Shown: positions 13,269 through 43,497 of the stretch, in pieces
How the letters are laid out: each line of letters begins with the position of its first letter
How positions within the stretch are numbered: position 1 is the first letter of the stretch
NCBI GenBank assembly: GCA_047611425.1
Contig: JBLFWJ010000001.1
Span: 4,038 to 68,037, forward strand
Direction: 5' to 3'
Length of the DNA: 64,000 nucleotides
Origin: Bacteroidia bacterium
Lineage (GTDB): Bacteria > Bacteroidota > Bacteroidia > UBA10329
The notes under the pieces: generated by a model
Seen by the model: only the letters and a program-made list of their open reading frames with translations
Told to the model about the DNA's origin: nothing
The model's database searches: none
Program-made: the position numbers and the translations under genes

Positions 13269-13273
13269 TAATT

Positions 13274-14371: not shown

Positions 14372-14392
14372 GCCAGTTTATAAGACTTAGTC

Positions 14393-14797
14393 ATGGCCAA
14401 TAGAAAGAAAGAAAGAGCAGATAGGCTGAAGGAAGAGAGAAAGACTCAATTCTTCGCAAAGTTGAACAACTGTCCTACCGCACCAAGAAAGATGCGATTG
14501 GTAGCAGACCTTATAAGAGGTATGCAGGTTGACAAGGCGCTATATACATTGAAACTGAATCCGAAAGAGGCTTCAGGTAGAATGGAGAAGTTGCTTTTGT
14601 CAGCAGTATCAAACTGGGAGCAGAAGAACGAAGGGAAGACTGCTGATGGTGGCGCACTTTTCGTAAAAGCAGTGATGGTTGATTCTGGTAGAATGCTGAA
14701 AAGGGTTCAACCAGCTCCACAAGGAAGAGCACACAGAGTAAGAAAACGATCAAACCACGTAACGATGGTAATTGACAGCCTGAGCCAAGAAGCATAA
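14393..14797 (+). CDS. rplV: 50S ribosomal protein L22
   Basis: L22 pattern, position between rpsS and rpsC. Confidence 0.9.
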
Positions 14798-15522
14798 TGG
14801 GACAGAAAACTAACCCGATAGGTAATAGACTTGGAATCATCAACGGATGGGATTCCAACTGGTATGGCGGAAAAGATACGCCAGCGAAGATTGAAGAGGA
14901 TCACAAAGTCCGAACCTATCTACGTGCACGTTTGGCAAAGGCAAGCCTTTCCAAAATCATAATTGAGCGTACGCTTAAATTGGTTACGGTTACCGTAAAC
15001 ACAGCTCGTCCAGGAATCATTATCGGTAAAGGAGGAAGTGAAGTTGATAAGCTTAAGCAAGAGTTGAAGAAGATTACTGGCAAAGAAGTCCAGATTAATA
15101 TCTTCGAGATTAAGCGACCAGAATTGGATGCTCGATTGGTAGCAGAAAGCGTTGCCCGTCAGTTGGAAGGAAGAGTTTCTTTTAGAAGAGCGGTTAAGAT
15201 GTCAGTTGCATCTACCATGAGAATGGGCGCTGAAGGAATTAAGATTCAGGTGAGCGGAAGATTGGGTGGAGCAGATATGGCTCGTACAGAAATGTATAAG
15301 GATGGAAGAATTCCATTGCACACTTTCAGAGCTAATATTGACTATGCATTAGTTGAGGCACACACTACATACGGAAGAATCGGTGTTAAGGTGTGGATTT
15401 GTAAAGGACTTGTTTATGGTAAGAGAGATCTTTCTCCAAACATAGGACAGGATAAGAAAGGCGGACCAAATAAGAAAGGCGGTCCAAGAGGTGGAGGTCA
15501 AAGACGTCCAGAGAGGAAATAA
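14797..15522 (+). CDS. rpsC: 30S ribosomal protein S3 (with basic G/K/P-rich C-terminal tail)
   Basis: [14 protein letters not shown]...KH-domain S3 sequence. Confidence 0.94.
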
Positions 15523-15554
15523 TATTAGCGTTTAATACAATAGACCAGTAAGTT

Positions 15555-15974
15555 ATGCTACAGCCAAAAAGGACGAAGTTCCGGAAGATGCAAAAGATGA
15601 AGATGAAGGGGATGGCCCAGAGGGGCAATCAACTCAGCTTCGGAACATTTGGCATCAAAGCTTTAGAAGGTGCTTGGATTACAAGTCGCCAGATAGAAGC
15701 TGCCCGTATCGCTGTTACCAGGTACATGAAACGTGAAGGCCAAGTGTGGATCAACATTTTTCCAGATAAGCCTGTAACGAAGAAACCTGCTGAAGTAAGA
15801 ATGGGTAAAGGAAAAGGTTCACCTGAATACTGGGTGGCAGTTGTAAAGCCAGGTCGAATCATGTTCGAACTAGAAGGCGTTGATACGGAAACAGCAAAAG
15901 AGGCTTGTCGATTGGCATCTCAGAAACTGCCTATCACAACTCGATTTGTAACTAGAAAGGACTACGCAGCCTGA
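15555..15974 (+). CDS. rplP: 50S ribosomal protein L16
   Basis: [11 protein letters not shown]...R.G. Confidence 0.94.
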
Positions 15975-15988
15975 TAATCTAAGGAATT

Positions 15989-16180
15989 ATGGAGAATTCA
16001 GTAATAAGAGAACTTTCAAGCGAGGAGCTTAACTCAAGAATAATTGAGGAGAAGCACAACATGACCAAAATGAAAATGGCTCATGCAGTGTCTCCAGTTG
16101 AGAACCCACAGACGCTTAAGACAACAAGAAAATTGATCGCTAAGCTGCTTACTGAGCAGACAAAACGTTCAAACAATTAA
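15989..16180 (+). CDS. rpmC: 50S ribosomal protein L29
   Basis: 63 aa, helical L29 pattern, position. Confidence 0.85.
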   Translation: MENSVIRELSSEELNSRIIEEKHNMTKMKMAHAVSPVENPQTLKTTRKLIAKLLTEQTKRSNN

Positions 16181-16205
16181 ACCAATCAGGTAGGAAAGCA
16201 AAACA

Positions 16206-16478
16206 ATGGAAGCTACCCAAACAGCAGAAAGAAACCTACGCAAGGAGATCCTTGGTCTGGTTACCAGTAACAGCATGGACAAGTCCATCACTGTTATTGT
16301 TGAACGCAAGGAGAAGCACCCGATGTACGGAAAGTACGTGAAGAAGAGTAAGAAATTCCACGCTCATGATGAGAAGAATGAGTGCAACGTGGGAGATACT
16401 GTTCGAATCATGGAAACACGTCCATTGAGTAAGACAAAGTGCTGGAGAATGGTTGAAATCATAGAAAGAGCTAAGTAA
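16206..16478 (+). CDS. rpsQ: 30S ribosomal protein S17
   Basis: GxVxS.KM.KT..V.VER...HP.Y.K pattern. Confidence 0.92.
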
Positions 16479-16479
16479 G

Positions 16480-16848
16480 ATGATTCAGCAAGAGAGTAGG
16501 CTAAAATGCGCTGATAACAGCGGAGCCAAAGAAGTATTGTGCATTAGGGTTCTTGGAGGAACGAAGAGAAGATATGCCTCAGTTGGCGATCAGATTGTAG
16601 TTACTGTTAAGCACAGCATGCCAAATAGCAACGCGAAAAAAGGTACAGTAACACGTGCAGTTATCGTTAGAACTAAGAAGGAAGTAAGAAGACAAGATGG
16701 TTCTTACATTCGATTTGACGACAACGCAGTTGTATTGCTAAATGCCACTGGAGAAATGAGAGGAACCCGAATATTCGGACCTGTTGCCAGAGAGTTGCGC
16801 GAAAAGTCATTTATGAAGATCGTATCACTTGCCCCTGAGGTACTTTGA
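16480..16848 (+). CDS. rplN: 50S ribosomal protein L14
   Basis: [17 protein letters not shown]...IRV.GG canonical L14. Confidence 0.95.
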
Positions 16849-16867
16849 TACAAATCGACAGAACGAG

Positions 16868-17128
16868 ATGAAAAAGTTTCATATAAAGAAGAACGACCAG
16901 GTTGTGGTTATTACCGGTGAGAACAAAGGTTCAGAAGGTAAGGTGCTTGAAATGCACACAAAGACATCAAGAGCATTGGTGGAAGGTGTGAACATGATTA
17001 AGCGTCACACCAAACCAAATACTCAGTTTCCTGACGGAGGAATCATCGAAAAGGAGGCACCGATACATGTGTCTAACTTGAAGTTGGTTGAGGCGAAGGC
17101 AGGAACAGCTAAGAATAGTTCTAAGTAA
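16868..17128 (+). CDS. rplX: 50S ribosomal protein L24 (start moved to the internal ATG giving MKKFHIKKND)
   Basis: KOW-domain L24. The track ORF begins 13 codons upstream and overlaps rplN, so the MKKFHIKK start at 16868 is preferred. Confidence 0.9.
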   Translation: MKKFHIKKNDQVVVITGENKGSEGKVLEMHTKTSRALVEGVNMIKRHTKPNTQFPDGGIIEKEAPIHVSNLKLVEAKAGTAKNSSK

Positions 17129-17162
17129 TCATTACCGAAGGGTTAATAGAAGAATTAAATAA

Positions 17163-17717
17163 GTGATGAGTCAAAAAGCTACACTTAAGGGAAAGTACAA
17201 CGAGGAGATTGTTCCGGCATTAACGGAGCAGTTCAAGTACTCTTCAAGAATGCAGGTACCTGTGTTGGAGAAGATCTGCCTGAATCAAGGTCTTGGAATC
17301 GCTGTTGCTGACAAGAAGATTATTGATGCCGCCATTATTGATATGGGGTTGATCACTGGTCAAAAAGCAGTTGCTGCATATTCTAAGAAGGACGTTTCGA
17401 ACTTCAAATTGAGAAAAGGAATGCCGATTGGTGTACGTGTTACATTGAGAGGCGACAAGATGTACGAATTCCTAGAGAGATTGATTCGAGTAGCACTGCC
17501 ACGTGTACGTGACTTCAGAGGAATCAGCCCAAAAGGAATGGACGGAGGAGGTAACTACTCAATGGGTGTTACTGAGCACATCATCTTCCCAGAGATTGAT
17601 ATTGACAAAGTGAACAGAATCCTAGGTATGGATATCACCTTTGTAACCTCTGCAAAAAGCAACGAGGAAGGAATAGCATTATTAAAAGAATTTGGACTTC
17701 CGTTCAAAAAGAACTAA
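17163..17717 (+). CDS. rplE: 50S ribosomal protein L5
   Basis: L5 pattern (...NYSMG..E...FPEI). Confidence 0.94.
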
Positions 17718-17736
17718 TAAAAAGGTAAGCTGAGTC

Positions 17737-18006
17737 ATGGCTAAAGAATCAATGAAAGCAAGAGAGCGCAAGCGCGCTAAGATGGTTGCAAAGTTTGCTG
17801 AAAAGCGAGCTGCGCTTAAAGCTGAAGGCGACTATCAAGGACTTGCACGACTTCCTAAGAATGGGTCTGCAGTAAGAATGCACAATCGTTGCAGTATTAC
17901 TGGTCGTCCTAAAGGATATATGCGCGACTTCGGTATTTCAAGGATTCAGTTCCGCGAGATGGCCAACAACGGATTGATTCCGGGCGTAAGAAAGACTAGC
18001 TGGTAA
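17737..18006 (+). CDS. rpsN: 30S ribosomal protein S14 (89-aa long form)
   Basis: S14 sequence with C-terminal ...R...G.IPGV.K.SW. Confidence 0.92.
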
Positions 18007-18030
18007 TTTATTGATAGTAGAGAAAGAGTT

Positions 18031-18426
18031 ATGACAGATCCAATTGCAGATTATCTGACACGCATCCGAAACGGGATTCAAGCAAACCACAGAGTGGTTG
18101 AGATTCCTGCTTCAAACATGAAGAAGAGAATCACTGAGGTGCTTTTCAACAAAGGGTATATCCTTAACTATAAGTTTGAGGAAGAAGGGCCACAGGGTAC
18201 TATCAAAGTTGCTTTGAAGTATCACCCTAAGACAAAGGTTAACGCGATTAAGAGTATTCAACGTGTTAGTCGTCCAGGTTTGAGAACATATAAAGGGACA
18301 AGTGAAGTTCCACGTGTTCTAAACGGACTTGGAATTGCCATCGTTTCAACTTCTCAAGGTTTGATGAGTGATAAGGAGGCAAGAGAAAAAGGAATTGGCG
18401 GAGAGGTTATTTGCTCTGTTTATTAA
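18031..18426 (+). CDS. rpsH: 30S ribosomal protein S8
   Basis: MTDPIADYLTRIRNG canonical S8 N-terminus. Confidence 0.95.
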   Translation: MTDPIADYLTRIRNGIQANHRVVEIPASNMKKRITEVLFNKGYILNYKFEEEGPQGTIKVALKYHPKTKVNAIKSIQRVSRPGLRTYKGTSEVPRVLNGLGIAIVSTSQGLMSDKEAREKGIGGEVICSVY

Positions 18427-18445
18427 TAGATAAAGAAGACAGGTT

Positions 18446-19000
18446 ATGTCAAGAATAGGAAAAGCAATTATCAACTTACCTGCAGGGGTAGACATCAAGG
18501 TTGATGGCACAACTGTTACTGTAAAGGGTGCGTTGGGTGAATTGTACCAGGAACTAGATCCAGCTATAACAGTTGAGATTGAGGATGGCGTGCTGACGTG
18601 CGTACGTTCAAATGAAGATAAGCAGACGAAGGCTAATCACGGTCTTTATCGTTCATTGATCAACAATATGATCATTGGTGTAACTGCTGGATACGAGAAG
18701 AAGTTGGAGTTGGTTGGTGTTGGATACCGTGCGACAATGAAAGGTCAGCAATTGGATTTAACACTTGGATTCTCACACAATATTTCATTCATGTTACCAG
18801 CAGAGGTTAAGGCCGAAGCAGTAGCTGAAAGAGGTAAAAATCCAATCATCATCCTTAAGTCTTTTGATAAGCAATTGATCGGTCAGGTTTGCGCCAAGAT
18901 TAGATCACTTAGAAAGCCAGAGCCATACAAGGGCAAAGGAGTTCGATTCGTAGGAGAACAAATTAGAAGAAAGGCAGGTAAATCAGCCGCATCAGCATAA
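18446..19000 (+). CDS. rplF: 50S ribosomal protein L6
   Basis: MSRIGK.I..P.GV two-domain L6. Confidence 0.94.
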   Translation: MSRIGKAIINLPAGVDIKVDGTTVTVKGALGELYQELDPAITVEIEDGVLTCVRSNEDKQTKANHGLYRSLINNMIIGVTAGYEKKLELVGVGYRATMKGQQLDLTLGFSHNISFMLPAEVKAEAVAERGKNPIIILKSFDKQLIGQVCAKIRSLRKPEPYKGKGVRFVGEQIRRKAGKSAASA

Positions 19001-19007
19001 TTGAGTC

Positions 19008-19364
19008 ATGGCAGTTAAGAAGTCAGATAGAAGAGACAAGATCCGTAGAAAGATCAGAGCGAGCATCATTGGAACCGCAGAGCGCCCAAGAATGTCGATT
19101 TTCAGAAGTAACAAGGGCATTTATGTTCAGCTTATTGACGATGCAAACGGAACCACTTTGGTTGCAGCATCTACTGGAGACAAAGGCATCGAAGGGTCAA
19201 AGGGTTCTAAGATCGAAGTATCTAAAATGGTAGGTACTGCAATCGCGGAGAAAGCTAAAGAAGCTGGAATTGACAAAGTGGTATTTGACCGAGGCGGTTA
19301 CTTGTATCACGGTAGAGTAAAGTCATTGGCAGATGGTGCCAGAGAAGGTGGATTACAGTTTTAA
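19008..19364 (+). CDS. rplR: 50S ribosomal protein L18
   Basis: L18 pattern (...DRGGY.YHGRV.A.A.GAREGGL.F). Confidence 0.93.
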
Positions 19365-19382
19365 TACCGATCTGAAGAAAAA

Positions 19383-19886
19383 ATGAAAAAGGTACAAGCA
19401 AAAGATACAGAGCTTAAAGACCGAGTGGTCGGTATTCAGCGTGTTGTAAAGGTGACCAAAGGTGGTCGTACTTTCAGTTTCTCTGCCATTGTCGTGGTTG
19501 GAGATGAGAAAGGAACTGTAGGACACGGATTTGGAAAAGCGAAAGAAGTTGTTGAGGCAATTTCAAAAGGAATTGAGGATGCTAAGAAGAACTTGATTAA
19601 GGTTCCTGTTATCAACGATACAATTCCACATCAACAAGAATTGAAGTACAGTGGTGCTCATGTTTTCATGAAGCCTGCAAGTCGTGGTACCGGTGTTATT
19701 GCTGGTGGTGCAATGAGAGCTGTATTGGAGAGTGCTGGAGTTAAAAATGTTTTGGCTAAGTCCAAGGGTTCTTCAAATCCACACAACGTAGTTAAAGCAA
19801 CTTACAATGCACTAGCAGAAATGCGTGATGCATACCAAGTAGCTGACTCAAGAGGCGTGAGCGTTAATAAAGTATTCAACGGTTAA
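19383..19886 (+). CDS. rpsE: 30S ribosomal protein S5
   Basis: VV.I.RV.KV.KGGR.F.F.A..VVGD..G.VG.G.GKA.EV S5 motifs. Confidence 0.95.
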
Positions 19887-19897
19887 GAAAAGCTATT

Positions 19898-20074
19898 ATG
19901 GCTAAGATCAAAGTAAAGCAGGTACGAAGTGCCATCAACCGTCCTCAACGACAGAAGAGAACGATTCAAGCGCTTGGTTTGAAGAAATTGAACCAAGTAG
20001 TTGAACATGATGATACACCAGCGATCAAAGGAATGATCGCCAAGGTGGCTCATATGGTTGAAGTAGTAGATTAA
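19898..20074 (+). CDS. rpmD: 50S ribosomal protein L30 (58 aa, below the ORF-track cutoff)
   Basis: Manual translation: MAKIKVKQVRSAINRPQRQKRTIQALGLKKLNQVVEHDDTPAIKGMIAKVAHMVEVVD*, a typical L30 between rpsE and rplO. Confidence 0.85.
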   Translation: MAKIKVKQVRSAINRPQRQKRTIQALGLKKLNQVVEHDDTPAIKGMIAKVAHMVEVVD

Positions 20075-20096
20075 TTTACGGGACAAGAAGCAAGAG

Positions 20097-20552
20097 ATGA
20101 ATCTCAGCAATCTGAAGCCGGCCGCTGGCTCTAACAAAAGCGGTAAAGTGAGAATTGGACGTGGTGAAGGAACCGGTAAAGGCGGAACTTCTACTCGTGG
20201 TCACAAAGGTGCCAAGTCTAGATCTGGATATAGTAAGAAGATTGGTTTTGAAGGTGGGCAGATGCCACTTCAAAGACGTGTTCCTAAGTTCGGTTTCAAG
20301 AACCCATTCAGAGTAGAGTATCGAGGTATCAATTTGGATACTCTTCAAGAATTAGCAGATGCTAAGAAATTGGAGAAAATCGATATCGCAACTCTAATTG
20401 ATAATGGATTGGCGGATAAGAAGGATCTAGTTAAGATTCTTGGTAGAGGAGAACTAAGTGCGAAGGTTGAAGTGAATGTTCACGCATTTTCTGCATCTGC
20501 AAAAGCAGCAATCGAGGCAAAAGGAGGACAGGCTGTAACTATTGAGAAGTAA
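20097..20552 (+). CDS. rplO: 50S ribosomal protein L15
   Basis: MNLSNLKPA.GS...KRIGRG.G.G.GGT..RGHKG L15 N-terminus. Confidence 0.94.
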   Translation: MNLSNLKPAAGSNKSGKVRIGRGEGTGKGGTSTRGHKGAKSRSGYSKKIGFEGGQMPLQRRVPKFGFKNPFRVEYRGINLDTLQELADAKKLEKIDIATLIDNGLADKKDLVKILGRGELSAKVEVNVHAFSASAKAAIEAKGGQAVTIEK

Positions 20553-21898
20553 TGAAGAAGTTCATCAGTACACTTAAGAACATTTATAGTATTCCGGACC
20601 TACGAACTAGGATCGGAAATACGCTGTTGTTCATTTTGATCTACAGAATTGGTTCTTACGTGGTACTTCCAGGAATCGATCCTGGTAAGTTGGACGCACT
20701 TCAAGCTCAATCTGCTGACGGTATTCTAGGTCTTATCTCAATGTTTACTGGTGGTGCATTCTCAAATGCTTCCATCTTCGCATTAGGTATTATGCCTTAT
20801 ATCTCTGCATCCATTGTATTGCAGTTAGCCGGATTGGCTGTTCCTGCATTACAGAAAATGCAGCGTGAGGGTGAAAGTGGACGAAAGAAGATTACTCAAT
20901 ACACTAGATATCTGACAATCATTATCTGTGGATTCCAAGGCCCAGGTTACATCGCTAACCTAATGTCTACGCTTCCAGCAGATGCATTTTTAATTGATCC
21001 ATCATTCTTCTGGTTCTCATCTTGGTTGATTCTGATCACAGGTACCGTATTCGTTATGTGGTTGGGTGAGAAGATTACAGACAAGGGTATCGGTAACGGT
21101 ATTTCACTATTGATTATGATTGGAATTATTGCTCAGTTGCCATTCGCAACTATGGCAGAGTTTGGTACTAGAATGACCGGTGGAAATGGAGGTCTGGTGA
21201 TATTTATACTGGAAATTGCAGCACTGATGATTGTGATTACCGCTTGTATCATGCTAGTTCAGGGTACTCGAAGAATTCCAGTTCAGGTTGCAAGAGCAGC
21301 TATTTCTGGAAGAACCGCTTTACCACAAGGTGGAGCTCGTCAGTACATTCCTTTAAAAGTGAATGCAGCGGGTGTAATGCCAATCATCTTTGCGCAGGCA
21401 ATAATGTTCGTTCCGGTAACACTTGGATCTTATGCCAGTGATGGTGCAAGTGCGTTTGTTGCGGCATTTTCAGACTTTGGTGGATTCTGGTACAACTTGG
21501 TCTTTGCCATCTTGATTATCGTTTTCACATACTTCTATACTGCTATCACCATCAATCCAAATCAAATGGCTGATGACATGAAGCGTAACGGAGGTTTCAT
21601 TCCAGGTATTAAGCCAGGAAAGAGAACAGGAGAATACCTTGACAATATCATGTCAAGAATCACTTTACCAGGATCAATGTTCCTTGCGTTTGTAGCAATT
21701 ATGCCTGCCTTCGCAATGTTGTTCGGAGTGAACATGCAGTTCTCTCAGTTCTACGGAGGAACATCACTATTGATTATGGTAGGTGTTGTATTGGATACAC
21801 TACAACAAGTGGAGAGTCACTTGTTAATGAGACATTATGATGGTCTTATGAAGACTGGAAAGATCAAAGGTCGGTCTTCCATGAGCATGGCTGGATAA
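20552..21898 (+). CDS. secY: Preprotein translocase subunit SecY
   Basis: 10-TM SecY with conserved plug and hinge motifs. Follows rplO. Confidence 0.95.
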   Translation: MKKFISTLKNIYSIPDLRTRIGNTLLFILIYRIGSYVVLPGIDPGKLDALQAQSADGILGLISMFTGGAFSNASIFALGIMPYISASIVLQLAGLAVPALQKMQREGESGRKKITQYTRYLTIIICGFQGPGYIANLMSTLPADAFLIDPSFFWFSSWLILITGTVFVMWLGEKITDKGIGNGISLLIMIGIIAQLPFATMAEFGTRMTGGNGGLVIFILEIAALMIVITACIMLVQGTRRIPVQVARAAISGRTALPQGGARQYIPLKVNAAGVMPIIFAQAIMFVPVTLGSYASDGASAFVAAFSDFGGFWYNLVFAILIIVFTYFYTAITINPNQMADDMKRNGGFIPGIKPGKRTGEYLDNIMSRITLPGSMFLAFVAIMPAFAMLFGVNMQFSQFYGGTSLLIMVGVVLDTLQQVESHLLMRHYDGLMKTGKIKGRSSMSMAG

Positions 21899-21925
21899 TT
21901 ATTAGAAAGGAAAGAGAATAGATCA

Positions 21926-22144
21926 ATGGCAAAACAAGCTTCCATAGAGCAAGACGGTACAATAATCGAAGCATTATCAAATGCTATGTTCCGTTGCGAA
22001 TTGGAAAATGGTCATGTTATCACTGCCCACATTTCAGGAAAGATGAGGATGTTCTACATCAAGATACTTCCAGGAGATAGAGTAAGAGTAGCAATGTCGC
22101 CATATGATTTAACAAAAGGACGAATTACCTACCGATACAAATAA
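21926..22144 (+). CDS. infA: Translation initiation factor IF-1
   Basis: 72 aa S1-like OB fold (...[25 protein letters not shown]...I.ILPGD.V.VE.SPYDL.KGRI.YR.K). Confidence 0.95.
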
Positions 22145-22150
22145 GACGAC

Positions 22151-22267
22151 ATGAAAGTCAGAGCATCAGTTAAAAAGCGTAGCGCAGATTGCAAGATCGT
22201 AAAGCGCAAGGGTCGCGTTTATGTGATCAACAAAAAGAATCCAAGGTTTAAGCAAAGACAAGGCTAA
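22151..22267 (+). CDS. rpmJ: 50S ribosomal protein L36 (38 aa, below the ORF-track cutoff)
   Basis: Manual translation: [38 protein letters not shown], the zinc-ribbon L36 consensus. Confidence 0.88.
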
Positions 22268-22298
22268 TCCTTGAATAACAGATAATCAATTACTGCAA

Positions 22299-22673
22299 AT
22301 GGCACGTATTTCAGGTATAGATCTACCAAAGAACAAACGAGGAGAAATTGGCCTCACTTACATTTTCGGAATCGGAAAAGTAACAGCTCAGAAAATTTTG
22401 GACGCAACAGGTATCAACCGTAGCGTCAAAGTTGAAGAGTGGGATGATGATCAATTGTCAAGAATCCGAGAGACTATTCAACAGATTAAGACGGAAGGAA
22501 CTTTAAGATCAGAGATCCAAACAAACATTAAGCGATTGATGGACATCGGTGCTTACCGAGGAATTCGTCATCGTGCTGGATTGCCACTTCGTGGTCAGCG
22601 AACCAAGAATAATTCAAGAACAAGAAAAGGAAAGAGAAAGACTGTTGCGAACAAAAAGATTGCAGCTAAATAA
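22299..22673 (+). CDS. rpsM: 30S ribosomal protein S13
   Basis: MARI.G.DLP..K...I.LTYI.GIG S13 N-terminus. Confidence 0.94.
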
Positions 22674-22705
22674 TCTCTCACTCAATAAGTAAACAATTAG
22701 GTACA

Positions 22706-23095
22706 ATGGCTAAAACGTCAAAAACCAGTAAGAAAAGAAACGTTAAGGTAGAAGCTGTAGGACAAGTCCACGTCAGCTCTTCCTTCAACAACATCATCAT
22801 CAGCATTACCAACATGGCTGGTGAAGTGATTTCTTGGTCTTCTGCAGGAAAAATGGGTTTCCGTGGATCTAAGAAGAACACTCCTTATGCTGCTCAATTA
22901 GCAGCTGAAGAGTGTACCAAGGTTGCTGTTGAACTTGGAATGAGAAAAGCCAAGTGCTACGTTAAAGGACCAGGTGGTGGTCGTGAGTCTGCTATGCGAA
23001 CTGTTCATAATTCAGGCATCGAGATCTCTGAAATCATTGACGTGACGCCACAGCCGCACAACGGATGTCGTCCTCCAAAGAGGAGAAGAGTATAA
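22706..23095 (+). CDS. rpsK: 30S ribosomal protein S11
   Basis: S11 pattern (...GSKK.TP.AAQ.AAE...VKGPG.GRE.A.R). Confidence 0.94.
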
Positions 23096-23144
23096 TTGAA
23101 GTTGACCGACAGAAGAGGTTTTAAAAAATACAATTACCAATACA

Positions 23145-23753
23145 ATGGCCAGATATACAGGACCAAAAACGAAGATTGCTAGAAAGTTCGGACAACCGAT
23201 ATTCGGACCGGACAAGGCGTTTGAAAAACGAAACTTCCCTCCAGGGCAGCACGGTAACGGACGAAGAAGAAAGAAGCAGTCTGAATACGGGCTTCAATTG
23301 ATGGAGAAGCAGAAGGCTAAGTACACTTACGGTGTTCTTGAGCGTCAGTTCCGAAATCTATTCAAAAGAGCATCTGCGAAAGAAGGTGTAACAGGTGAGA
23401 ACCTTTTGAAGTTCATCGAAGCAAGATTGGACAATGTGGTATACCGAATGGGTATCGCTCCAACACGAAGCGGTGCACGTCAGTTAGTTAGCCATAAGCA
23501 CATTACTGTAAACGGAGGCGTTGTAAACATCGCATCTTATGCAGTAAAGCCAGGTGATAAAATTGCTGTACGTGAGCGTTCAAAGTCTTTGGAGGCAATC
23601 ACAGATTCATTGGCAACAAGAAGCTCGGCTGATTTTGAGTGGATCACTTTTGATTCAACTAGCATGCAGGGTGAGTTTTTAAACTTCCCAATGAGAACGG
23701 AGATTCCTGAGAACATCAACGAGCAGTTGATTGTGGAACTATACTCCAAGTAA
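23145..23753 (+). CDS. rpsD: 30S ribosomal protein S4
   Basis: [12 protein letters not shown]4 N-terminus and S4 domain. Confidence 0.94.
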
Positions 23754-23788
23754 TAGTTAGAACATTAGAACAGTATAAAAGACCCAAA

Positions 23789-24781
23789 ATGGCAATACTA
23801 GATTTTCAGAAGCCCGATAAAGTGATCATGCTCAACTCTGATGAGCGAAACGGAGAGTTTGAATTCCGTCCTTTGGAGCCAGGTTACGGTATCACTGTAG
23901 GTAATGCCCTAAGAAGAATTCTATTGAACTCTTTGGAAGGGTTTGCAATCACTTCTCTTCGTATTGAAGGTGTTGATCATGAGTTCTCTACCATAGATGG
24001 TGTTGTTGAGGACGTTACCGAGATTGTATTGAACTTGAAGCAAGTACGTTTCAAGCGTCAGATTGATACATTGGATAACGAGCGAGCTTCTATCAACGTT
24101 GGTGGTCAGGACCAATTGACTGCTGGTGATATTGGTAAGTTCTTGTCTGGATTCCAGATCCTTAATCCGGATCTAGTTATCTGTAACATGGACAAGAAGG
24201 TGAAATTGAATTTCGAAATCACCATCGATAAGGGTAGAGGTTATGTTCCTGCTGATGACAACAAGCCAGTGAATGCTCCTATGGGAACTATCGCTACTGA
24301 TGCCATCTTCACACCTATTAAGAATGTGAGATATGCAGTAGAGAACTTCCGTGTTGAGCAGAAGACTGACTACGAAAAGTTGGTTATGCATATTGACACT
24401 GACGGATCTGTTCATCCTAAGGATGCTTTGAAAGAAGCAGCTAAGATTTTGATCCATCACTTCATGTTGTTCTCTGACGAGAAAATATCCTTGGAGACTG
24501 AATCAAAGCTACCTGAGCAGGAGTTTGACGAAAACATGTTGCACATGCGTCAATTGCTCAAGACGAAGTTGGTAGACATGGATCTTTCTGTTAGAGCGTT
24601 GAACTGTCTTAAGGCAGCAGACGTTGAAACATTGGGAGACCTAGTTTCATTCAATAAGAACGATTTATTGAAGTTTAGAAACTTCGGTAAGAAGTCTTTG
24701 ACTGAGTTGGAGGATTTGGTACATGCCAAGAACCTAACTTTTGGAATGAATTTGAGCAAGTACAGATTAGAGGAAGACTGA
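23789..24781 (+). CDS. rpoA: DNA-directed RNA polymerase subunit alpha
   Basis: 330 aa with N-terminal dimerisation domain plus C-terminal alpha-CTD (...L.LSVR..NCLK...I..VGDLV). Confidence 0.95.
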
Positions 24782-24861
24782 GATTAGTTGTGAGTTAAGA
24801 GTTACGAGTTGCTAGTGCGACTCAAGACTAGAAGCTCGAAACTAGAAACTGATTATATATT

Positions 24862-25539
24862 ATGAGACACAGAAAATCATTCAACCACTTAGGCCGTCAG
24901 GTTGGACACCGTAAGGCAATGTTGGCTAATATGGCGTCTTCGCTTATCCTACATAAGCGAATCAACACAACTGTTGCCAAGGCAAAAGCTTTGCGTCAAT
25001 TTGTTGAGCCAATCATTTCTAAAGGAAAAGTTGACAGCACACATTCGCGAAGAATGGCGTTTAGTTACCTAAGAGACAAGTATGCAGTAACCGAATTGTT
25101 CGGTGATGTAGCTTCTAAGGTAGGCGACCGTCCAGGTGGATACACTCGAATCATTAAGATGAACAACCGTTTAGGTGACAACGCTGCAATGGCGATCATC
25201 GAGTTGGTTGACTTCAACGATATGATTGTGAAGGAAGCTAAGTCTGGAACTGCTAAGAAAAAGCGAAGCCGTAGAGGTGCTGCTAAGAAAGCTGATCCTG
25301 CTGCTGCTGCTGCTCCAGCTGCTGAGGAAACTCTAGTTGAAGCTGCTCCAGAAGTAAAAGCTGAGGCACCTGCTCCAGTTGCTGAAGAGGCGAAGCCAGA
25401 AGTCAAAGCGGAAGCACCAGCTGCTGAAGCTCCAACCAAAGAAGAGAAGAAGGAAGAAGCAAAGGCTGATGAGGCTAAAGCTCCTGAGGCTAAGGCTGAA
25501 GAAAAGAAAGAAGACAATAAGGACGAGGATAAGAAGTAA
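24862..25539 (+). CDS. rplQ: 50S ribosomal protein L17 with about 100-aa A/E/K/P-rich low-complexity C-terminal extension
   Basis: N-terminal 120 aa are canonical L17 ([12 protein letters not shown]...). The remainder is [34 protein letters not shown]... low-complexity tail. Confidence 0.9.
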
Positions 25540-25564
25540 TTCTTTTTACCCTTTAAAAGAAAAA

Positions 25565-25600
25565 AGCCCCTTCCGCCTCAGGCGGAAGGGGCTTTTTGTT
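25565..25600 (+). terminator. Rho-independent terminator ending the ribosomal superoperon
   Basis: agccccttccgcc-tca-ggcggaaggggct 13-bp GC-rich stem followed by TTTTTGTTATTTG. Confidence 0.7.
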
Positions 25601-25665
25601 ATTTGTGATGTATATTCGAAATATGGTTCGAGTGATTCTATTGGGGGTGTTTTAGGTGTTTTTAA

Positions 25666-26145
25666 ATGGACACCGCATTAGTCATAGAAACCATTGTCGG
25701 CAGATACAACGCTGGAAAGAGTAAACGTACGATGACCTCAGACAATCTGAATTTAGCATTACGAGTTACATTTTTTGTCTTGTTCTCATTCATCTGCTCA
25801 GATTCCTTTGGCCAAAATTGGTTTAAAGCCTTTGAAGACCGTGACTATGTCGCCCTGCAAAGGCACATCGACAAGGGTAGAAACATTGACAGGGTTAATG
25901 ACCAAGGAGTATTTGCTCTGTGGCTTGCTACCACCAAAGCAGATACAGTAATGATGAAGTTTCTCCTAGGTAATGGCGCAAACCCTAATTTTTCGACTAA
26001 AAAGAGTTCAGCGCCATTGGTTTTTTGTGCTCAAGAGGGCAACATGACACCCGCGCGCATACTCATTGCATACAATGCGAATGTGGAATTCACTCAAAAC
26101 CTTCACAAGTTGTCCCCCATGAGGCAAGCCGTTCAAAATGGTTAA
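25666..26145 (+). CDS. Ankyrin-repeat protein, N-terminal part (secreted; the signal-peptide-like start is more likely the Met at 25732); frame breaks at 26138-26145
   Basis: Ankyrin repeats (VFALWLATTKADTVMMKFLLGNGANPN, APLVFCAQEGNMTPARILIAYNANVE...). Hydrophobic N-terminal segment LALRVTFFVLFSFICSDSFG. Confidence 0.5.
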   Translation: MDTALVIETIVGRYNAGKSKRTMTSDNLNLALRVTFFVLFSFICSDSFGQNWFKAFEDRDYVALQRHIDKGRNIDRVNDQGVFALWLATTKADTVMMKFLLGNGANPNFSTKKSSAPLVFCAQEGNMTPARILIAYNANVEFTQNLHKLSPMRQAVQNG

Positions 26146-38246: not shown

Positions 38247-38771
38247 TTATTTTAGATCTTTTAAATAGATCTCCAAATCGCAGGCCATTTTCAAGTCATT
38301 CTTTGCGTGAGGATATAAATCGGTCATTGTGCAACTAGAATCCAATTTGTACTCTAATCTGGCGTACCAGTTCTGTAAAGCCTGCTTCATTGGAATGACT
38401 GATTCTTCTGGAATCAAAACTTCGCATTGCATTTTGACGCACCCAAGTTCCAACATCAGTTTCTCGCTTGCCTTGTACAAAGACGAGGCGATGCCTTTGC
38501 CTCTTAAATTAGCCGGAACTACCAACATACCGAACCAACCTAAGGATGGGTCAAGTTGTTTTGTGTGCACTACCCCAACGAGATATCCGTCCAAATAAGC
38601 TGAGATGATCTCGCCCTTTTCAATTGATCGGATAATGAAGGCTTCGGAGGTTCTTAAATGGCCATCCTTCCAAACTGGGGCTTCTTCTACCGCATAAACG
38701 TCATTAATCAAATCCGCAATCGCTTTCGAGTCCGAGTTGTTTAATGTGGCTTGATCAATTTTAAGATCCAT
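38247..38771 (-). CDS. GNAT family N-acetyltransferase
   Basis: Acetyl-CoA binding motif ...VVPANLRGKGIASSLYKASE.... Confidence 0.65.
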   Translation of the reverse strand: MDLKIDQATLNNSDSKAIADLINDVYAVEEAPVWKDGHLRTSEAFIIRSIEKGEIISAYLDGYLVGVVHTKQLDPSLGWFGMLVVPANLRGKGIASSLYKASEKLMLELGCVKMQCEVLIPEESVIPMKQALQNWYARLEYKLDSSCTMTDLYPHAKNDLKMACDLEIYLKDLK

Positions 38772-38779: not shown

Positions 38780-41700
38780 TTACAATGCAATAATCTTCTC
38801 TAATTCTTTGGTAGGAGTGATTTGATCTCTGTTTAGAGAATACTCCTGCTTTAGCCCCTTTACGAAATACATATCGATTAACCCTTTGCCTTTCGCATCA
38901 ATCTTACCTCGGTATTCGCATTCAAAATACTCTTTCACAAGATCGTAAGTTGTTCCGGAAATATTCACTTTTCCAGCCTCAGAGGTTGATTCCATTCGAC
39001 TGGCTGTGTTTACCGTATCGCCCCAAACATCGTAAGCAAACTTCTTTTTACCTACAACTCCAGCTGTCAATGGACCGGTGTGTACGCCAATTCTAACTTC
39101 CCAGAATTTCTCGCCTTTCTCTTTTTTCTCCTCCGCAATTTCACGCATTACATTTCGAAGCCTCAATGCGCAGAGAGTAGTGGCAATTGGGTTGCTTTTA
39201 TTCTTAATGGGAACACCGCCAGCACACATGTATGCGTCACCGATAGTCTTGATCTTCTCTAGGCTGAGTTCCGTAACAATATCATCAAATTGGATGAAGC
39301 ACTTGTCAAGTTCCGCAACCAAATCTTCTGGTTTCGTCTGCTCTGCAAACTTGGTAAAGCCTTTGAAATCAGTGAAAAGGACTGATGCCATATTATAATG
39401 TTTGGCGGTTGCTTTACCGTTGGCTTGTAGCTCTTCGGCCGTCTCTTTTGGAAGAATATTAAGTAGTAAATCTTCCACTTTGCCTTTCTGTTCTTCCAAT
39501 TCCACCGTACGCTTTTTCACCATCGTTTCCAAGGCGCGTTGCTGATCACGAAGACTTCGTTCTCGCATTTTGATCACAAGGAAAACGAGAAGAATCAGAA
39601 CCAACCCGTATATCAAGACCATGTACCATCGCTTCCAAATCATTTCTTCAATCTGAAATGAGACAGAATTGACGGCAGTAACCTGACCGAGAATATTTCT
39701 TGCACGTATCTCAAGAGTGTAAACCCCAGCAGGAATAAATGGGATCTCGATACTCGCGCTTGGGCTCCAACGGCTCCAGGTATCCTTCAAGCCAACAAGT
39801 CGATATTGATAGTCGGTGCCATCACTCTTTAAGTAGAAAGGAGCTGAGATTAGAAATTCCAGCGAGTTCTTTTTATGAACTGTCAACGCTTCTGATAGCG
39901 AGAATCGAGTTCCCGATCCGTCCATCATCTGACGGATATATACATTGAAAATCTCGCCAACAGAGGAGTCTGCTTTCGCGTCAATCCTGATTAGGTTTTG
40001 ACTTCCATCCACAACCCACAAATGGCCCTTACTGTCACGATGAATGTCACGTGGGTCATCAAAAAGCTCTAAAAACCGTGCGTTTCCATCATCAGATCCA
40101 TCAAGTGGTAACCAATTTTGACCATTGTAAAACCAATTGTTTCCAGGACCATTCAATCTGTATTCCCCATTCCCAGAAAGGAATAGATGGCTGTTTGCGG
40201 TAGGCAACATCCGATCGACATCAGAGCTGTAAGTGAATATTCCGGATGGGAGTAGGAAGTGAAGCTTATCATCAATGCTGGCAATCTGAACTGACTCAGA
40301 AAAGTCAGGCCCAAACAGGTATTCCTTTTTACCAATGGCTCGGCCGGATTCGTCAAGATCGATATGCCATGCCGTGTTGTCGGAACTTATCCAAAGATCT
40401 ATTGCTCCGTCTTCGGCAACGCTGTAAATATTGGCATCAATGCTATCGGTGGTTGTTCGAATAATCCAAGAATCACCAACATGTTCCAGCGTTTGGTATC
40501 CGGTAGAGGTACAAACGTAGAAGCGGTTTTTCTTAGATGAAGTAGAAATGTGGTTTACATAGATGTTCTCAATAACAGGTTCGGCACGACTTCCGAAAAC
40601 TTCAAAAACGCCAGTGTTGGTTGCCACGAGGAGTTTTCCCTGATATTGTACAAACTGCTTAGATTTTACATCAAGACCTTCTACCCGTTTGAATAGATAA
40701 CTTGAGGCCTGTTCCATACGAGTTTGCTTTGCACTTACCGTGGGAATTGACACGTTATCTGGAACCAGCTGTTCTTTGGTCGTTTCTTTAGTAAGTTCTG
40801 GTTCTGTCCCAGCTGATTTTTCCGCTTGAATGACCTCAACAGGTGCCTCTTTCTGTTCTTTTTCCTGTTGTCTGCGTTCCTTTTTCAGTTTGCGCCTCAG
40901 CTGACGTTTCTCTTTTAGAGATAAGTCATCTGGAATCAAATCTTCAATGTCAACATCCTTTTCAGGTTGGTTGGTGCTTTTTATAGCTGACTGAACACTC
41001 GGTTTCTTCGCTAAAGGTTTTGAAACTTTGGGTTTGACCTCTTGTGCTTTTTGTTCTTCTTGCTCTTGAAGAACTTTCAAAAACTCAGCTTTATTGGCTG
41101 ATTTTGTCAAGTAAAACACACCATTGTTGGTTCCAACATAAAGTCTGCTTCCATGCTTGATGCTCGTCAGAAGGTTTCCTTCAATTCCTGGGTATGCAGA
41201 GAAATCATTAATTGGAACTTCCAGATCTACTCTTGTAATTCCCAACTCGTGTGCAATCCAAAGGCCACCATTTCGATCTCGACACATGGCCATAACTTCA
41301 TTGTCCGGTAAGCCTGTTCGATAATTCAGAGTGAATAAAGTTTCACCATTTTTTCCGTCAACAACGATACATCCACCCGAAATGGTTCCGACTACATATC
41401 GGTTTCGATCCAGGGCAAGTCCGGAGGTCATCATGTGTTCGTCTAGATAAGCGTGATCATCAGGATTGATTTCCATAAAACGCTTACCGTTAAATTCAAT
41501 CAATCGTTCGTTGGCTGTTCCAATCAGCGTTTTTCCTTTTTCGGGTTCAATGCTGAAAAGGATTTGCTCGTCCGCTTCAAAAGGGCGAGTAGGAAGGGAG
41601 ATGATGGAATCTTCATATAGAATATCCAACGTACCAGCGGTTTTCTTTATAAAGAACCTTGCACCTGAAACAAATGCTCCATCATAAATGGCATCACCTA

Positions 41701-42265
41701 CATCTTTCAATTTTGTTGGAACCGATTCCAGTTGAAGATCGGTGATGAATACGGCAGTTGGGGAATAGAAAAAAACATGCTCTCTATTCACCAATATGTC
41801 GGTAAAATTGTGTCCAATATCAACGCTATCCAACAAACGGGAATAACTGTATTTCCCAGTAGGATCTTGTTCCAATTTCCCAAACTCTCCGCTCAATGCT
41901 ACTAGCACCTGATCGGTACCTTCAAGCAAAACCAATTTATGAGGTATTCCAGGTATCTCGATGTTTCCCCAATTGGCCCCGTCATAAGTGAAAATTCCTT
42001 GCCTCTTGGCAATGAGAATCACCTCGTTATTATCTTGAACCATGTCGTATGTCCGTGAGTCTAGCGGAATACCCTGTGCATCAATATTGGTAAGAAATGG
42101 CTGACCGTTTTGTGCCAAAATAAGTTGGCCACATAACAGAAATAAGAGGAGGAATAAATGCTTCAATACACTGGTTTGGAATGGCTGGCTAATATAGCTG
42201 ATCGATAGTGTAGTACTGTCTGTTGAGGCGCATTTTATAAATGAAAAATGCCGCAAAAGCGGCAT
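38780..42265 (-). CDS. Sensor class III adenylate/guanylate cyclase: signal peptide, periplasmic two-component-regulator beta-propeller with K/E-rich insert, Y_Y_Y domain, TM helix, cytoplasmic cyclase homology domain
   Basis: C-terminus has class III cyclase motifs (ASVLFTDFKGFT, KTIGDAYMCAGG, RIGVHTGPLTAGVVG, VWGDTVNTASRMES). Single TM MVLIYGLVLILLVFLVIKM. N-terminal WD-like propeller repeats (GLWIAHELGITRVD etc.). Start codon uncertain: an alternative TTG at 42166 gives MKHLFLLLFLLCGQLILAQ. Confidence 0.8.
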   Translation of the reverse strand: MPLLRHFSFIKCASTDSTTLSISYISQPFQTSVLKHLFLLLFLLCGQLILAQNGQPFLTNIDAQGIPLDSRTYDMVQDNNEVILIAKRQGIFTYDGANWGNIEIPGIPHKLVLLEGTDQVLVALSGEFGKLEQDPTGKYSYSRLLDSVDIGHNFTDILVNREHVFFYSPTAVFITDLQLESVPTKLKDVGDAIYDGAFVSGARFFIKKTAGTLDILYEDSIISLPTRPFEADEQILFSIEPEKGKTLIGTANERLIEFNGKRFMEINPDDHAYLDEHMMTSGLALDRNRYVVGTISGGCIVVDGKNGETLFTLNYRTGLPDNEVMAMCRDRNGGLWIAHELGITRVDLEVPINDFSAYPGIEGNLLTSIKHGSRLYVGTNNGVFYLTKSANKAEFLKVLQEQEEQKAQEVKPKVSKPLAKKPSVQSAIKSTNQPEKDVDIEDLIPDDLSLKEKRQLRRKLKKERRQQEKEQKEAPVEVIQAEKSAGTEPELTKETTKEQLVPDNVSIPTVSAKQTRMEQASSYLFKRVEGLDVKSKQFVQYQGKLLVATNTGVFEVFGSRAEPVIENIYVNHISTSSKKNRFYVCTSTGYQTLEHVGDSWIIRTTTDSIDANIYSVAEDGAIDLWISSDNTAWHIDLDESGRAIGKKEYLFGPDFSESVQIASIDDKLHFLLPSGIFTYSSDVDRMLPTANSHLFLSGNGEYRLNGPGNNWFYNGQNWLPLDGSDDGNARFLELFDDPRDIHRDSKGHLWVVDGSQNLIRIDAKADSSVGEIFNVYIRQMMDGSGTRFSLSEALTVHKKNSLEFLISAPFYLKSDGTDYQYRLVGLKDTWSRWSPSASIEIPFIPAGVYTLEIRARNILGQVTAVNSVSFQIEEMIWKRWYMVLIYGLVLILLVFLVIKMRERSLRDQQRALETMVKKRTVELEEQKGKVEDLLLNILPKETAEELQANGKATAKHYNMASVLFTDFKGFTKFAEQTKPEDLVAELDKCFIQFDDIVTELSLEKIKTIGDAYMCAGGVPIKNKSNPIATTLCALRLRNVMREIAEEKKEKGEKFWEVRIGVHTGPLTAGVVGKKKFAYDVWGDTVNTASRMESTSEAGKVNISGTTYDLVKEYFECEYRGKIDAKGKGLIDMYFVKGLKQEYSLNRDQITPTKELEKIIAL

Positions 42266-42266
42266 T
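42247..42266 (-). promoter_or_regulatory. Hairpin plus T-run between siaC-like gene and cyclase gene (candidate intra-operon attenuator or partial terminator)
   Basis: On the minus strand AATGCCGC-tttt-GCGGCATT perfect 8-bp stem immediately followed by TTTTCATTT. Overlaps the first annotated ATG of the cyclase ORF. Confidence 0.4.
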
Positions 42267-42294
42267 CAAAGTAATTTCTTCACAACGTAGTTGG

Positions 42295-42672
42295 TTAGTC
42301 CACTTCAATCATCTTAAAGGGAACGTCAATTATGCTTTGGTAGTCTTCACCAGCCTCTAGCATGTCCTCATCATCCTCCTCGTAATACCAATTGATGACA
42401 ATTTCGTTGCCGTTTTGCCACAGACCTTCTGCCTTTTTCAAAAGGTCAAGTAAGCACTTGCTAGAACTCGTATTGAAGTATTCCAACTGTATCTCAATAG
42501 TAGTCTTGGCTCTAGGGCTAGCGCTATACGTCTCTAGCCAATCCACAAGTGGTTTGTAAAATTCAATGCTGTTTTCCGGGATCGATCTTCCCTTCAACAA
42601 AAGACTGCCCTGTTCTGGGTCGAAATTGATAATCGGTGTCTTTGGTGTTCCGTCAAGTAATATTGGATCCAT
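42295..42672 (-). CDS. siaC: SiaC family (DUF1987) regulatory phosphoprotein
   Basis: 125 aa. PILLDGTPKTPIINFDPEQGSLLLKGRSIPENSIEFYKPLVDWLETY... matches the DUF1987/SiaC pattern (TP.V.FD...G.L.I.G.S.PEN...FY.P...W...Y), acidic C-terminus. Confidence 0.7.
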   Translation of the reverse strand: MDPILLDGTPKTPIINFDPEQGSLLLKGRSIPENSIEFYKPLVDWLETYSASPRAKTTIEIQLEYFNTSSSKCLLDLLKKAEGLWQNGNEIVINWYYEEDDEDMLEAGEDYQSIIDVPFKMIEVD

Positions 42673-42683
42673 GGTGCAATTAT

Positions 42684-43289
42684 TTATTGTTCTACGTTAA
42701 TGTTTAATGTGAAGAAAGTGTGTTCGTTATTTATTGGAGTGAAATCATAGGCTAGTTTTTGTCCTGTTTTTCGAGCAATGTCAACCATACCAAGGCCACT
42801 TCCACCTTTGCCACTACGTTGGTCATTGTTCAATATTTCTTTATACAGTTCTCGAAGACCTTCTGGTTCTCGAGAATTGATGTCTTCAAGATTTGTCTTT
42901 AAATCGTCAGCTCTATCGGTTTGAACATAATTGCCCGTAATAATTCGGTAACCCTTGTCGTCCAACCCAATCATAAAAATGGCAGATCTATCACTATCTT
43001 CTTTCTCGCCTAAATTTATTGGCACCGCATCTACATGATGATAGAGGTTCTGTAAACACTCTACCATTACGTTATATACTTTCTTACGAGTTCTCGGAGC
43101 TTCCTGAAACGTATCCAATCGCTGCTCCATTATCTGGAGAATGGACGACATCAGTTCAGCTGTAATATCTCCTTTAAAAGAGAGTAGGATGTTGTTCATA
43201 TTCATCCTATCATACAACTCGTATATGTCTATTCCGCTTACAGGTTTTCTAGTTGACACGTCAGTGGTAGGTTTATTCTCGTCTATCAT
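42684..43289 (-). CDS. siaB: SiaB family protein kinase (GHKL-like; start taken at MIDENKP)
   Basis: ...ILLSFKGDITAELMSSILQIMEQRL...KKVYNVMVECLQNLYHH... with C-terminal G-box GKGGSGLGMVDIARKT. Matches SiaB/DUF-type partner-switch kinases adjacent to DUF1987. Confidence 0.65.
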   Translation of the reverse strand: MIDENKPTTDVSTRKPVSGIDIYELYDRMNMNNILLSFKGDITAELMSSILQIMEQRLDTFQEAPRTRKKVYNVMVECLQNLYHHVDAVPINLGEKEDSDRSAIFMIGLDDKGYRIITGNYVQTDRADDLKTNLEDINSREPEGLRELYKEILNNDQRSGKGGSGLGMVDIARKTGQKLAYDFTPINNEHTFFTLNINVEQ

Positions 43290-43497
43290 TAATGAAATTA
43301 CCGCTTGGATTAATGGTCTTAAAACCAAGTAGAATTGGCTCTTTTACCTCAAATTTCACGTAGGGTTACATCTGCTATGTTTTTTTGTCCAAAGCGCGAC
43401 TGCACGATACATGTAGCGACTTTCTAATTTCCGGCTAATCCTGATATGGAGTGTCAATTCATAGACAAACTAGATTTGAAGGTCTATTTTTGTCGCT

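Follow-up and report, generated by a model that had tools for sequence, protein, structure and literature searches.

Adjoining SiaB-SiaC and sensor adenylate cyclase operons in a Bacteroidia genome: probably two transcription units rather than one

We analysed a 64,000-nucleotide stretch of DNA from a Bacteroidia bacterium (hereafter the window), in which four consecutive open reading frames (ORFs) of the minus strand encode a SiaB-like kinase, a SiaC-like phosphoprotein, a large sensor cyclase and a GNAT acetyltransferase. To our knowledge, Pseudomonas is the only genus in which the Sia partner switch, familiar there from the control of biofilms, has been characterised; its output in that case is a diguanylate cyclase. 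An earlier note, made from the sequence alone, had described the first three genes as a head-to-tail operon and proposed that the switch controls the cyclase. The three genes are present and their family assignments hold. Their arrangement, however, is better read as two adjacent units, siaBC and cyclase-GNAT, which are probably transcribed separately, and we give this reading a probability of roughly 55%. The first unit would be a bicistronic siaB-siaC operon running from 43289 to 42295 and ending at its own intrinsic terminator, and the second a cyclase-GNAT operon running from 42166 to 38247. The two would have been joined in one narrow clade from two independently conserved gene blocks.

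The region between siaC and the cyclase gene contains a hairpin, GAAUGCCGC-UUUU-GCGGCAUUU, located 27 nt past the stop codon of siaC (hairpin at 42267-42246 of the minus strand); a U-rich tail comes next. Its stem of nine pairs is the longest among the five terminator-like sites found between positions 38000 and 43600, and its fold z-score is -3.3. The two closest relatives (loci L011 and L176, whose cyclases are 83% and 89% identical to that of the window) keep the hairpin through two compensatory pair changes, from U-A to G-C and from C-G to U-A.

The hairpin also bears on the start of the cyclase gene. The longest ORF, taken as the cyclase in the earlier note, opens at ATG 42265, 29 bp past siaC, and would encode 1161 amino acids. 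This codon sits within the hairpin stem, its counterpart is AGG in both relatives, and in these two genomes frame-breaking indels occur downstream of the hairpin, before the next start codon is reached; the longest ORF was therefore rejected as the gene. Conservation of the coding sequence among the three genomes begins at an invariant TTG at 42166, which gives rise to a signal peptide, (M)KHLFLLLFLLCGQLILAQ-NGQPF, found likewise in the orthologues P0123 and P0127. We therefore place the gene at 38780-42166, with a predicted protein of 1128 amino acids. As a consequence, the short gaps of 9 to 30 bp reported earlier hold for siaB and siaC, which are 11 bp apart, but not for siaC and the cyclase gene, which are separated by a 128-bp spacer with the terminator-like hairpin inside.

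Public annotations begin several orthologues (P0121, P0122, P0124, P0125 and P0128) at an internal methionine (MVQD..., MIQD... or MVQG...), 41 codons past TTG 42166 and 75 codons into the 1161-residue ORF. This start removes the signal peptide, and the conserved TTG is preferred. In the source annotations, the wrong start is thus assigned systematically to this cyclase family. About 25 nt upstream of the TTG, a three-way alignment revealed a block, TATATT(A/T)G (TATATTAG; TATATTTG in L176), that is conserved while the surrounding spacer diverges. The -7 promoter element of Bacteroidota has the consensus TAnnTTTG in Bacteroides and Flavobacterium promoters. The TATATTAG block resembles this element and may be part of a promoter for the cyclase gene.

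The boundary after siaC was then compared with other siaBC loci of the phylum. A SiaC of this type, 70-83% identical across Flavobacteriales, Bacteroidales, Marinilabiliales and Salinivirgaceae, is present in at least 460 GTDB species. The window proteins were used to search ORFs called from the 80 best species loci, each 16 kb long; with this simple ORF calling, the SiaB family and the SiaC family were each picked up in only 78 loci. The SiaB family was found in 78 loci directly upstream of siaC, with gaps of about 10-40 bp. The survey of DUF1987 neighbourhoods suggested by the earlier note gave no support to the wiring it proposed: a cyclase homology domain (CHD) cyclase was found in 0 of the 80 species loci, and a GGDEF protein, for which the positive control worked, also in 0 of 80. 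Genes on the same strand downstream of siaC are rare in these loci, start no closer than 66 bp and have no relation to signalling. Of 83 loci, 66 show a terminator-like hairpin and T run after siaC (stems of at least nine pairs in 61), as compared with 5 of 83 for siaB coding sequence and 2 of 83 for shuffled sequences. These data indicate that, throughout the phylum, the siaBC operon probably ends with siaC, a feature that the window would have retained. In relatives with a 79-80% identical SiaC, the block encoding AhpC, ZIP and methyltransferase proteins is kept beside siaBC; no cyclase is present there and unrelated genes follow.

The cyclase side has a partner of its own. Full-length orthologues are few, and eight contexts were available (the window, L007, L009, L011, L012, L014, L176 and L177). 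A GNAT gene adjoins or overlaps the cyclase gene in all eight, with spacings that range between a 4-bp overlap and an 8-bp gap, down to a cyclase identity of 56%; the gap in the window is 8 bp. In contrast, siaBC lies upstream only in the window and in L011 and L176, that is, at cyclase identities of at least 83%. Among the others with GNAT directly after the cyclase, no Sia part is nearby in L012/L013 (P0123, 72% identity) or in L009 and L014 (P0128 and P0127, 56%), and a SiaA-like PP2C phosphatase is encoded two genes upstream in L007/L008 and L177 (P0125 and P0124, 72-73%). Two more distant homologues have no GNAT directly after them: P0129 (L175, 37% identity), with an orphan SiaC 1.9 kb downstream, and P0131 (L010, 29%), with no Sia part nearby. 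The three clades with at least 72% identity keep the cyclase, GNAT, holin-like and hydrolase genes together as one block. Since the cyclase-GNAT(-holin-hydrolase) block is conserved without siaBC, the arrangement in the window is most simply the point at which two blocks, each conserved on its own, meet, and the adjacency of cyclase and GNAT is a much stronger operon signal than that of siaC and cyclase. The terminator, the 128-bp spacer, the GNAT partner and the restriction of the adjacency to the window and two relatives together remove the three-gene operon as evidence that the switch is wired to the cyclase.

Searches with hidden Markov models (HMMs) covered 91 cyclase-side loci, including 21 more distant propeller/Y_Y_Y cyclases. 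Sia parts were absent from the 11 loci of these distant cyclases in which each side has 3 kb or more of flanking sequence. A metagenome scan with the cyclase alignment returned, among the matches listed, more distant CHD proteins (32-59% identity); used as a negative control, 80 of their loci contained no Sia parts. The GNAT protein carries no domain for binding cyclic nucleoside monophosphates (cNMPs). Its conserved operon with the cyclase suggests a link between cyclic AMP (cAMP) and acetylation. In L009 (4985-5878) and L014 (1898-2548), a hydrolase of the metallo-beta-lactamase (MBL) fold (Lactamase_B_2, 131 bits in L009) is divergent to the 56% identical orthologue and could be a cyclic-nucleotide phosphodiesterase; the label of anti-Pycsar protein Apyc1 was rejected for this neighbour as too weak (14.8 bits, cutoff 50).

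The family assignments made earlier for the first two proteins were confirmed by profile searches. The SiaB-like protein matches the NCBIfam model SiaB_fam_kinase NF038262 with 162.9 bits (cutoff 85) and Pfam DUF6272 with 133.7 bits (cutoff 26.6). It aligns with the structure of P. aeruginosa SiaB (6kko_A, E-value 1e-15), and GSGLGMVDIARK pairs with GAGLGLLDIARK, the glycine-rich ATP-lid motif or G-box. The longest ORF starts at TTG 43328 and would encode 214 amino acids; the called lengths of relatives are 198-201 amino acids. The SiaC-like protein matches Pfam SiaC/PF09345 (DUF1987) with 146.4 bits (cutoff 24.5) over positions 2-119 of the 120 of the profile. The P. aeruginosa equivalog models were not reached for either protein (NF038264 for SiaB, 88.2 bits, cutoff 225; NF038265 for SiaC, 96.2 bits, cutoff 150), and the identity to the P. 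aeruginosa proteins by tblastn is about 28% for SiaB and 33% for SiaC. The two window proteins are therefore members of their families and not orthologue-grade matches.

The Ser/Thr cluster noticed earlier falls on the expected site. The SiaC-like protein aligns without gaps with P. aeruginosa SiaC (6kko_C/7e6g, E-value 5e-20), and its N67-T68-S69 is aligned with N67-T68-S69 of the latter. In P. aeruginosa, these residues, located at the start of helix alpha-2 and including the phosphorylated threonine T68, touch the stalk of SiaD (PMC8457831). Residues N67, T68, S69, S70, S71 and K72 are invariant in 30 members of the SiaC family. By homology, the SiaB-like kinase would be expected to phosphorylate T68 of the SiaC-like protein.

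The cyclase comprises a signal peptide (residues 1-19), a degenerate propeller, a Y_Y_Y domain (about 740-841), one transmembrane helix (847-865), a stalk or S-helix (866-913) and a class III catalytic domain (924-1105). From the layout proposed earlier, the signal peptide, the single transmembrane helix and the catalytic domain (Guanylate_cyc PF00211, 178.9 bits, cutoff 21.9) stand; the sensor part is less clear-cut, as the Y_Y_Y match (25.9 bits) is slightly below its cutoff of 26.6 and Reg_prop (33.8 bits, cutoff 20.4) was detected as a single repeat. The Y_Y_Y region nevertheless resembles the Bacteroides hybrid two-component-system sensor 3v9f (E-value 4e-12). Residues 355-486 (40709-41104) form an insert of about 130 amino acids, rich in K and E and of low complexity (e.g. 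KEKRQLRRKLKKERRQQEKEQKE), which splits the predicted periplasmic propeller; it is kept in close orthologues and is odd for a periplasmic sensor domain.

The transducer and catalytic domain of the cyclase align with AC9, AC8, AC5 and mycobacterial Cya (E-values 1e-45 to 1e-59). The metal-binding aspartates are D933 (FTD) and D977 (IGD), and the transition-state residues are N1053 and R1057 (TVNTASR); both pairs were aligned to the C1 and C2 domains of AC9. The substrate pair, K973 (EKIKTIGD) and D1046 (YDVWG), is the Lys/Asp of adenylate cyclase C2. All six residues are invariant in 11 orthologues, and a single chain holds all the residues required for an active homodimer. In class III cyclases, a Lys/Asp pair selects ATP and a Glu/Cys-like pair GTP. 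Because of its Lys/Asp pair, the predicted activity of the enzyme is that of an adenylate cyclase producing cAMP and not cGMP, which narrows the earlier proposal of either nucleotide.

According to the two-unit reading, a degenerate propeller with a Y_Y_Y domain, secreted or anchored, would sense a periplasmic cue, and the transmembrane helix together with the conserved coiled-coil stalk would relay the signal to the homodimeric class III domain for the synthesis of cAMP. The GNAT acetyltransferase would be translationally coupled to the cyclase. On the Sia side, a SiaA-like PP2C fused to a propeller/Y_Y_Y periplasmic sensor would strip the phosphate from the SiaC-like protein; the gene of such a phosphatase is adjacent to siaBC in about one species in eight and would lie outside this window. 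The output of the switch would be neither encoded beside siaBC nor a diguanylate cyclase. Family memberships, catalytic residues, gene boundaries and the conservation of terminator and gene order are shown by the sequences; the phosphorylation chemistry, cAMP as product, separate transcription and the lack of coupling between siaBC and the cyclase are inferred. Cross-talk between the two units is possible, and gene order does not show it.

Several points weigh against this reading. No fewer than three related genomes (the window, L011 and L176) have siaBC and the cyclase adjacent on the same strand. Transcription can read through terminators, and a link between the proteins can be compatible with separate transcription. 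In addition, Sia parts recur near two further cyclase lineages. In L007 and L177, the catalytic half of the propeller/Y_Y_Y PP2C encoded two genes upstream of the cyclase is SiaA-like (E-value 1e-54). In L175 (1912-8770), the orphan SiaC (121 amino acids, Pfam 89 bits, LNSVSYK with Ser at the T68 position) lies past one convergent flippase gene, and two divergent regulators of the Crp type, which bind cNMPs, are encoded upstream of the cyclase homologue. This orphan SiaC belongs to a subfamily of eight clusters, all on short contigs; one of them, L178, is too short to reveal a cyclase. Among the 91 cyclase-side loci, Sia parts occur only in the L007/L177 and L175 lineages and in the window clade. 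With the window left out, this corresponds to 2 of about 16 independent cyclase contexts, for which a rough Poisson estimate, with assumed background Sia copy numbers, gives p of about 0.02 to 0.1. The recurrence thus seems to exceed chance expectation and is suggestive, not decisive.

These points can be accounted for if SiaC-like protein acts on the cyclase in the way that SiaC acts on SiaD: the unphosphorylated form would bind the juxtamembrane coiled-coil stalk of the cyclase and stabilise the dimer in its active state. Phosphorylation of T68 by SiaB would release the cyclase, and the switch would gate cAMP synthesis, either alongside the periplasmic signal or jointly with it. Dimerisation through a stalk is required by GGDEF domains as well as by class III cyclase domains, so that the two kinds of enzyme could be activated in the same manner. 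The patch of SiaC that contacts the SiaD stalk (N67/T68/S69) is invariant in the SiaC-like family, and the stalk of the cyclase, between the transmembrane helix and the catalytic domain, is basic and conserved. Besides the adjacency in three genomes, the SiaA-like PP2C beside a 72% identical orthologue and the orphan SiaC with its two Crp-type regulators near the 37% identical homologue fit with such a coupling. Furthermore, no diguanylate cyclase lies near any examined siaBC locus of Bacteroidota, so that another output must exist. We regard this coupling as a tentative alternative, distinctly less probable than two separate units. It is opposed by the conserved terminator and the 128-bp spacer that part siaC from the cyclase, and by the absence of cyclase adjacency from all 80 species loci and of siaBC adjacency from four other lineages of cyclase orthologues. 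Moreover, SiaC proteins 70-83% identical occur in hundreds of species without a nearby cyclase, and the cyclase therefore cannot be the general target of the family. The lack of any Sia part at the 11 distant cyclase loci points in the same direction. The stalk itself is short (about 48 residues) and begins at the membrane. An S-x3-Q pattern (S/T-x3-Q), like S82/Q86 of SiaD, is confined to the window clade and P0123; it is not conserved in other orthologues and contains too little information to mark a SiaC-binding site. It is conceivable, though again rather doubtful, that a Flavobacteriales-like clade recruited the SiaC switch to gate its cyclase by a stalk clamp and, more broadly, that the SiaA-like, SiaB and SiaC proteins of Bacteroidota target the stalks of propeller/Y_Y_Y enzymes instead of diguanylate cyclases.

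The siaBC loci that include a phosphatase bear on another explanation. At least 10 of the 80 species have, ahead of siaB-siaC, genes for a protein of about 1100 amino acids, with a propeller, Y_Y_Y, a transmembrane helix and PP2C, and for a lipoprotein of 272 amino acids (L037, 3054-7278, is one example; the same order is found in L028, L053, L056, L057, L075, L088, L093 and L094). The PP2C half matches the NCBIfam SiaA model (E-value 4e-64), and the conserved lipoprotein of about 272 residues has no match in Pfam or NCBIfam. These loci are best described as putative SiaABC-like operons with a periplasmic sensor and no SiaD. Annotated plasmids of Persicobacter (SpoIIE-SiaB-SiaC) and Bernardetia (SiaB-SiaC) likewise carry no output gene. 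The propeller/Y_Y_Y architecture is, in addition, combined with a range of outputs, namely PP2C, histidine kinase, GGDEF, LytS-type kinase, GerE and cyclase. SiaA-like phosphatases and the cyclase could then be modular relatives, each with a propeller/Y_Y_Y sensor, a transmembrane helix, an S-helix and a variable output, that answer related envelope cues; their occasional proximity to Sia parts would be due to clustering, domain shuffling or a common regulon, with no contact between SiaC and the cyclase. We consider this improbable: it accounts for the association with PP2C and leaves the orphan SiaC beside the cyclase homologue of L175 unexplained. Its companion idea, that the RsbW-like kinase or SiaC holds and releases some other conserved target in the classical way, is equally unlikely: no alternative target emerged, and the commonest neighbour, an ABCG-like transporter found in 52 of the 80 species loci, has no phospho-binding domain.

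That transporter, of about 1023 amino acids, is convergent to siaC (e.g. L005, 5793-10281) and has an N-terminal extension of about 240 amino acids with no assigned domain; two conserved proteins of about 140 and 300 amino acids follow it in 18 of those 52 loci. It was rejected as a phospho-binding target, no FHA or other phospho-binding domain having been detected. Some Bacteroidales (L033, 2679-3164; L042, L046, L047 and L065) carry a second, divergent SiaC paralogue without a kinase, with the motif YxNS[AGS][ST], between guaA and an S41 peptidase gene and about 5 kb upstream of the main siaBC. In L007 (521-5783) and L177, overlapping genes upstream of the cyclase orthologue encode a trio of a 356-amino acid protein, the 1068-amino acid SiaA-like PP2C and a TPR protein of 330 amino acids.

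Compared with SiaABCD of P. aeruginosa, the window has homologous SiaB and SiaC proteins, the same N67-T68-S69 site and a tight spacing of siaB and siaC, and a SiaA-like PP2C domain precedes the pair in other Bacteroidota. Unlike SiaABCD, it has a terminator after siaC and contains no SiaA, SiaD or GGDEF gene; the absence of neighbouring GGDEF and SiaA genes noted earlier thus extends to the whole 64-kb window, where tblastn found neither PP2C nor GGDEF. The phosphatase of Bacteroidota, where present, also differs in bearing a propeller/Y_Y_Y periplasmic sensor. The Sia operon of Caballeronia zhejiangensis p2 (SpoIIE, SiaB, DUF1987, GGDEF) has the same SiaB-SiaC core under the same PGAP names; PGAP already calls these families SiaB family protein kinase and DUF1987. 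There, however, the GGDEF gene starts 2 nt past siaC, whereas in the window the class III cyclase gene comes 128 bp on, behind the terminator. RsbV/RsbW, SpoIIAA/SpoIIAB, HsbA-HsbD and BgrV-BgrR also rely on a small phosphoprotein whose phosphorylation state picks the partner. Those phosphoproteins are STAS proteins and not DUF1987, and the switches act on sigma factors or diguanylate cyclases; SiaC is described as structurally related to STAS domains (PMC8457831).

The cyclase shares a sensor layout of a Reg_prop repeat, a near-cutoff Y_Y_Y domain and one transmembrane helix with the Bacteroides hybrid two-component sensors (3v9f, 4a2l), which have a double propeller and Y_Y_Y. It differs from them by its degenerate propeller, with one repeat detected and the K/E-rich insert of about 130 residues, and by its output, a cyclase domain instead of a kinase, receiver and AraC chain. 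With AC9, AC8, AC5 and mycobacterial Cya (4p2f, 7yz9) it has in common a coiled coil, the LLxxILP transducer and a catalytic domain with all key residues; unlike these, it is of the single-transmembrane homodimer type, with a large periplasmic sensor and a GNAT operon.

The features of the locus are listed in Table 1. Elsewhere in the window, a long series of tightly packed small and medium ORFs on the plus strand (about 8000-26000, GC skew 0.11 to 0.23) looks like a housekeeping operon block, possibly of ribosomal proteins.

Table 1. Coordinates of the siaBC and cyclase-GNAT features in the window, with the evidence for each.
Feature	Position	Strand	Details and evidence
siaB-like kinase gene	42684..43289	-	201 aa, ATG 43289; NF038262, DUF6272, 6kko_A alignment
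siaC-like phosphoprotein gene	42295..42672	-	125 aa; PF09345, alignment with P. aeruginosa SiaC
Intrinsic-terminator-like hairpin	42236..42267	-	stem, fold z-score, compensatory changes in relatives
Conserved TATATTAG block, putative promoter element	42189..42196	-	three-way alignment
Sensor adenylate cyclase gene (predicted)	38780..42166	-	1128 aa, TTG 42166; Guanylate_cyc, Reg_prop
GNAT acetyltransferase gene	38247..38771	-	174 aa; Pfam Acetyltransf_1

The literature search turned up a single paper that mentions DUF1987 and none that mentions DUF6272, and nothing that connects Sia proteins to adenylate cyclases or deals with them in Bacteroidota; nor did a partner switch with a class III cyclase output turn up in the searchable literature. 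The earlier statement that a Sia-type switch wired to a CHD cyclase is uncharacterised agrees with this search. What appears to be new, and for which we found no description, is a siaBC pair that ends at a terminator across the phylum, is sometimes accompanied by a sensor-fused SiaA-like phosphatase and was never found adjacent to a diguanylate cyclase gene. Since siaBC ends its operon and a diguanylate cyclase gene is never adjacent in the loci examined, the output of the Sia switch in Bacteroidota becomes a testable question. The conserved SiaB-SiaC pair is spread over at least 460 species of the phylum, and the neighbouring adenylate cyclase of the window is one concrete candidate for the output. 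If SiaC were indeed coupled to the cyclase, a Ser/Thr partner switch would be linked to cAMP signalling, making it the first switch of the Sia type to have cAMP as its output.

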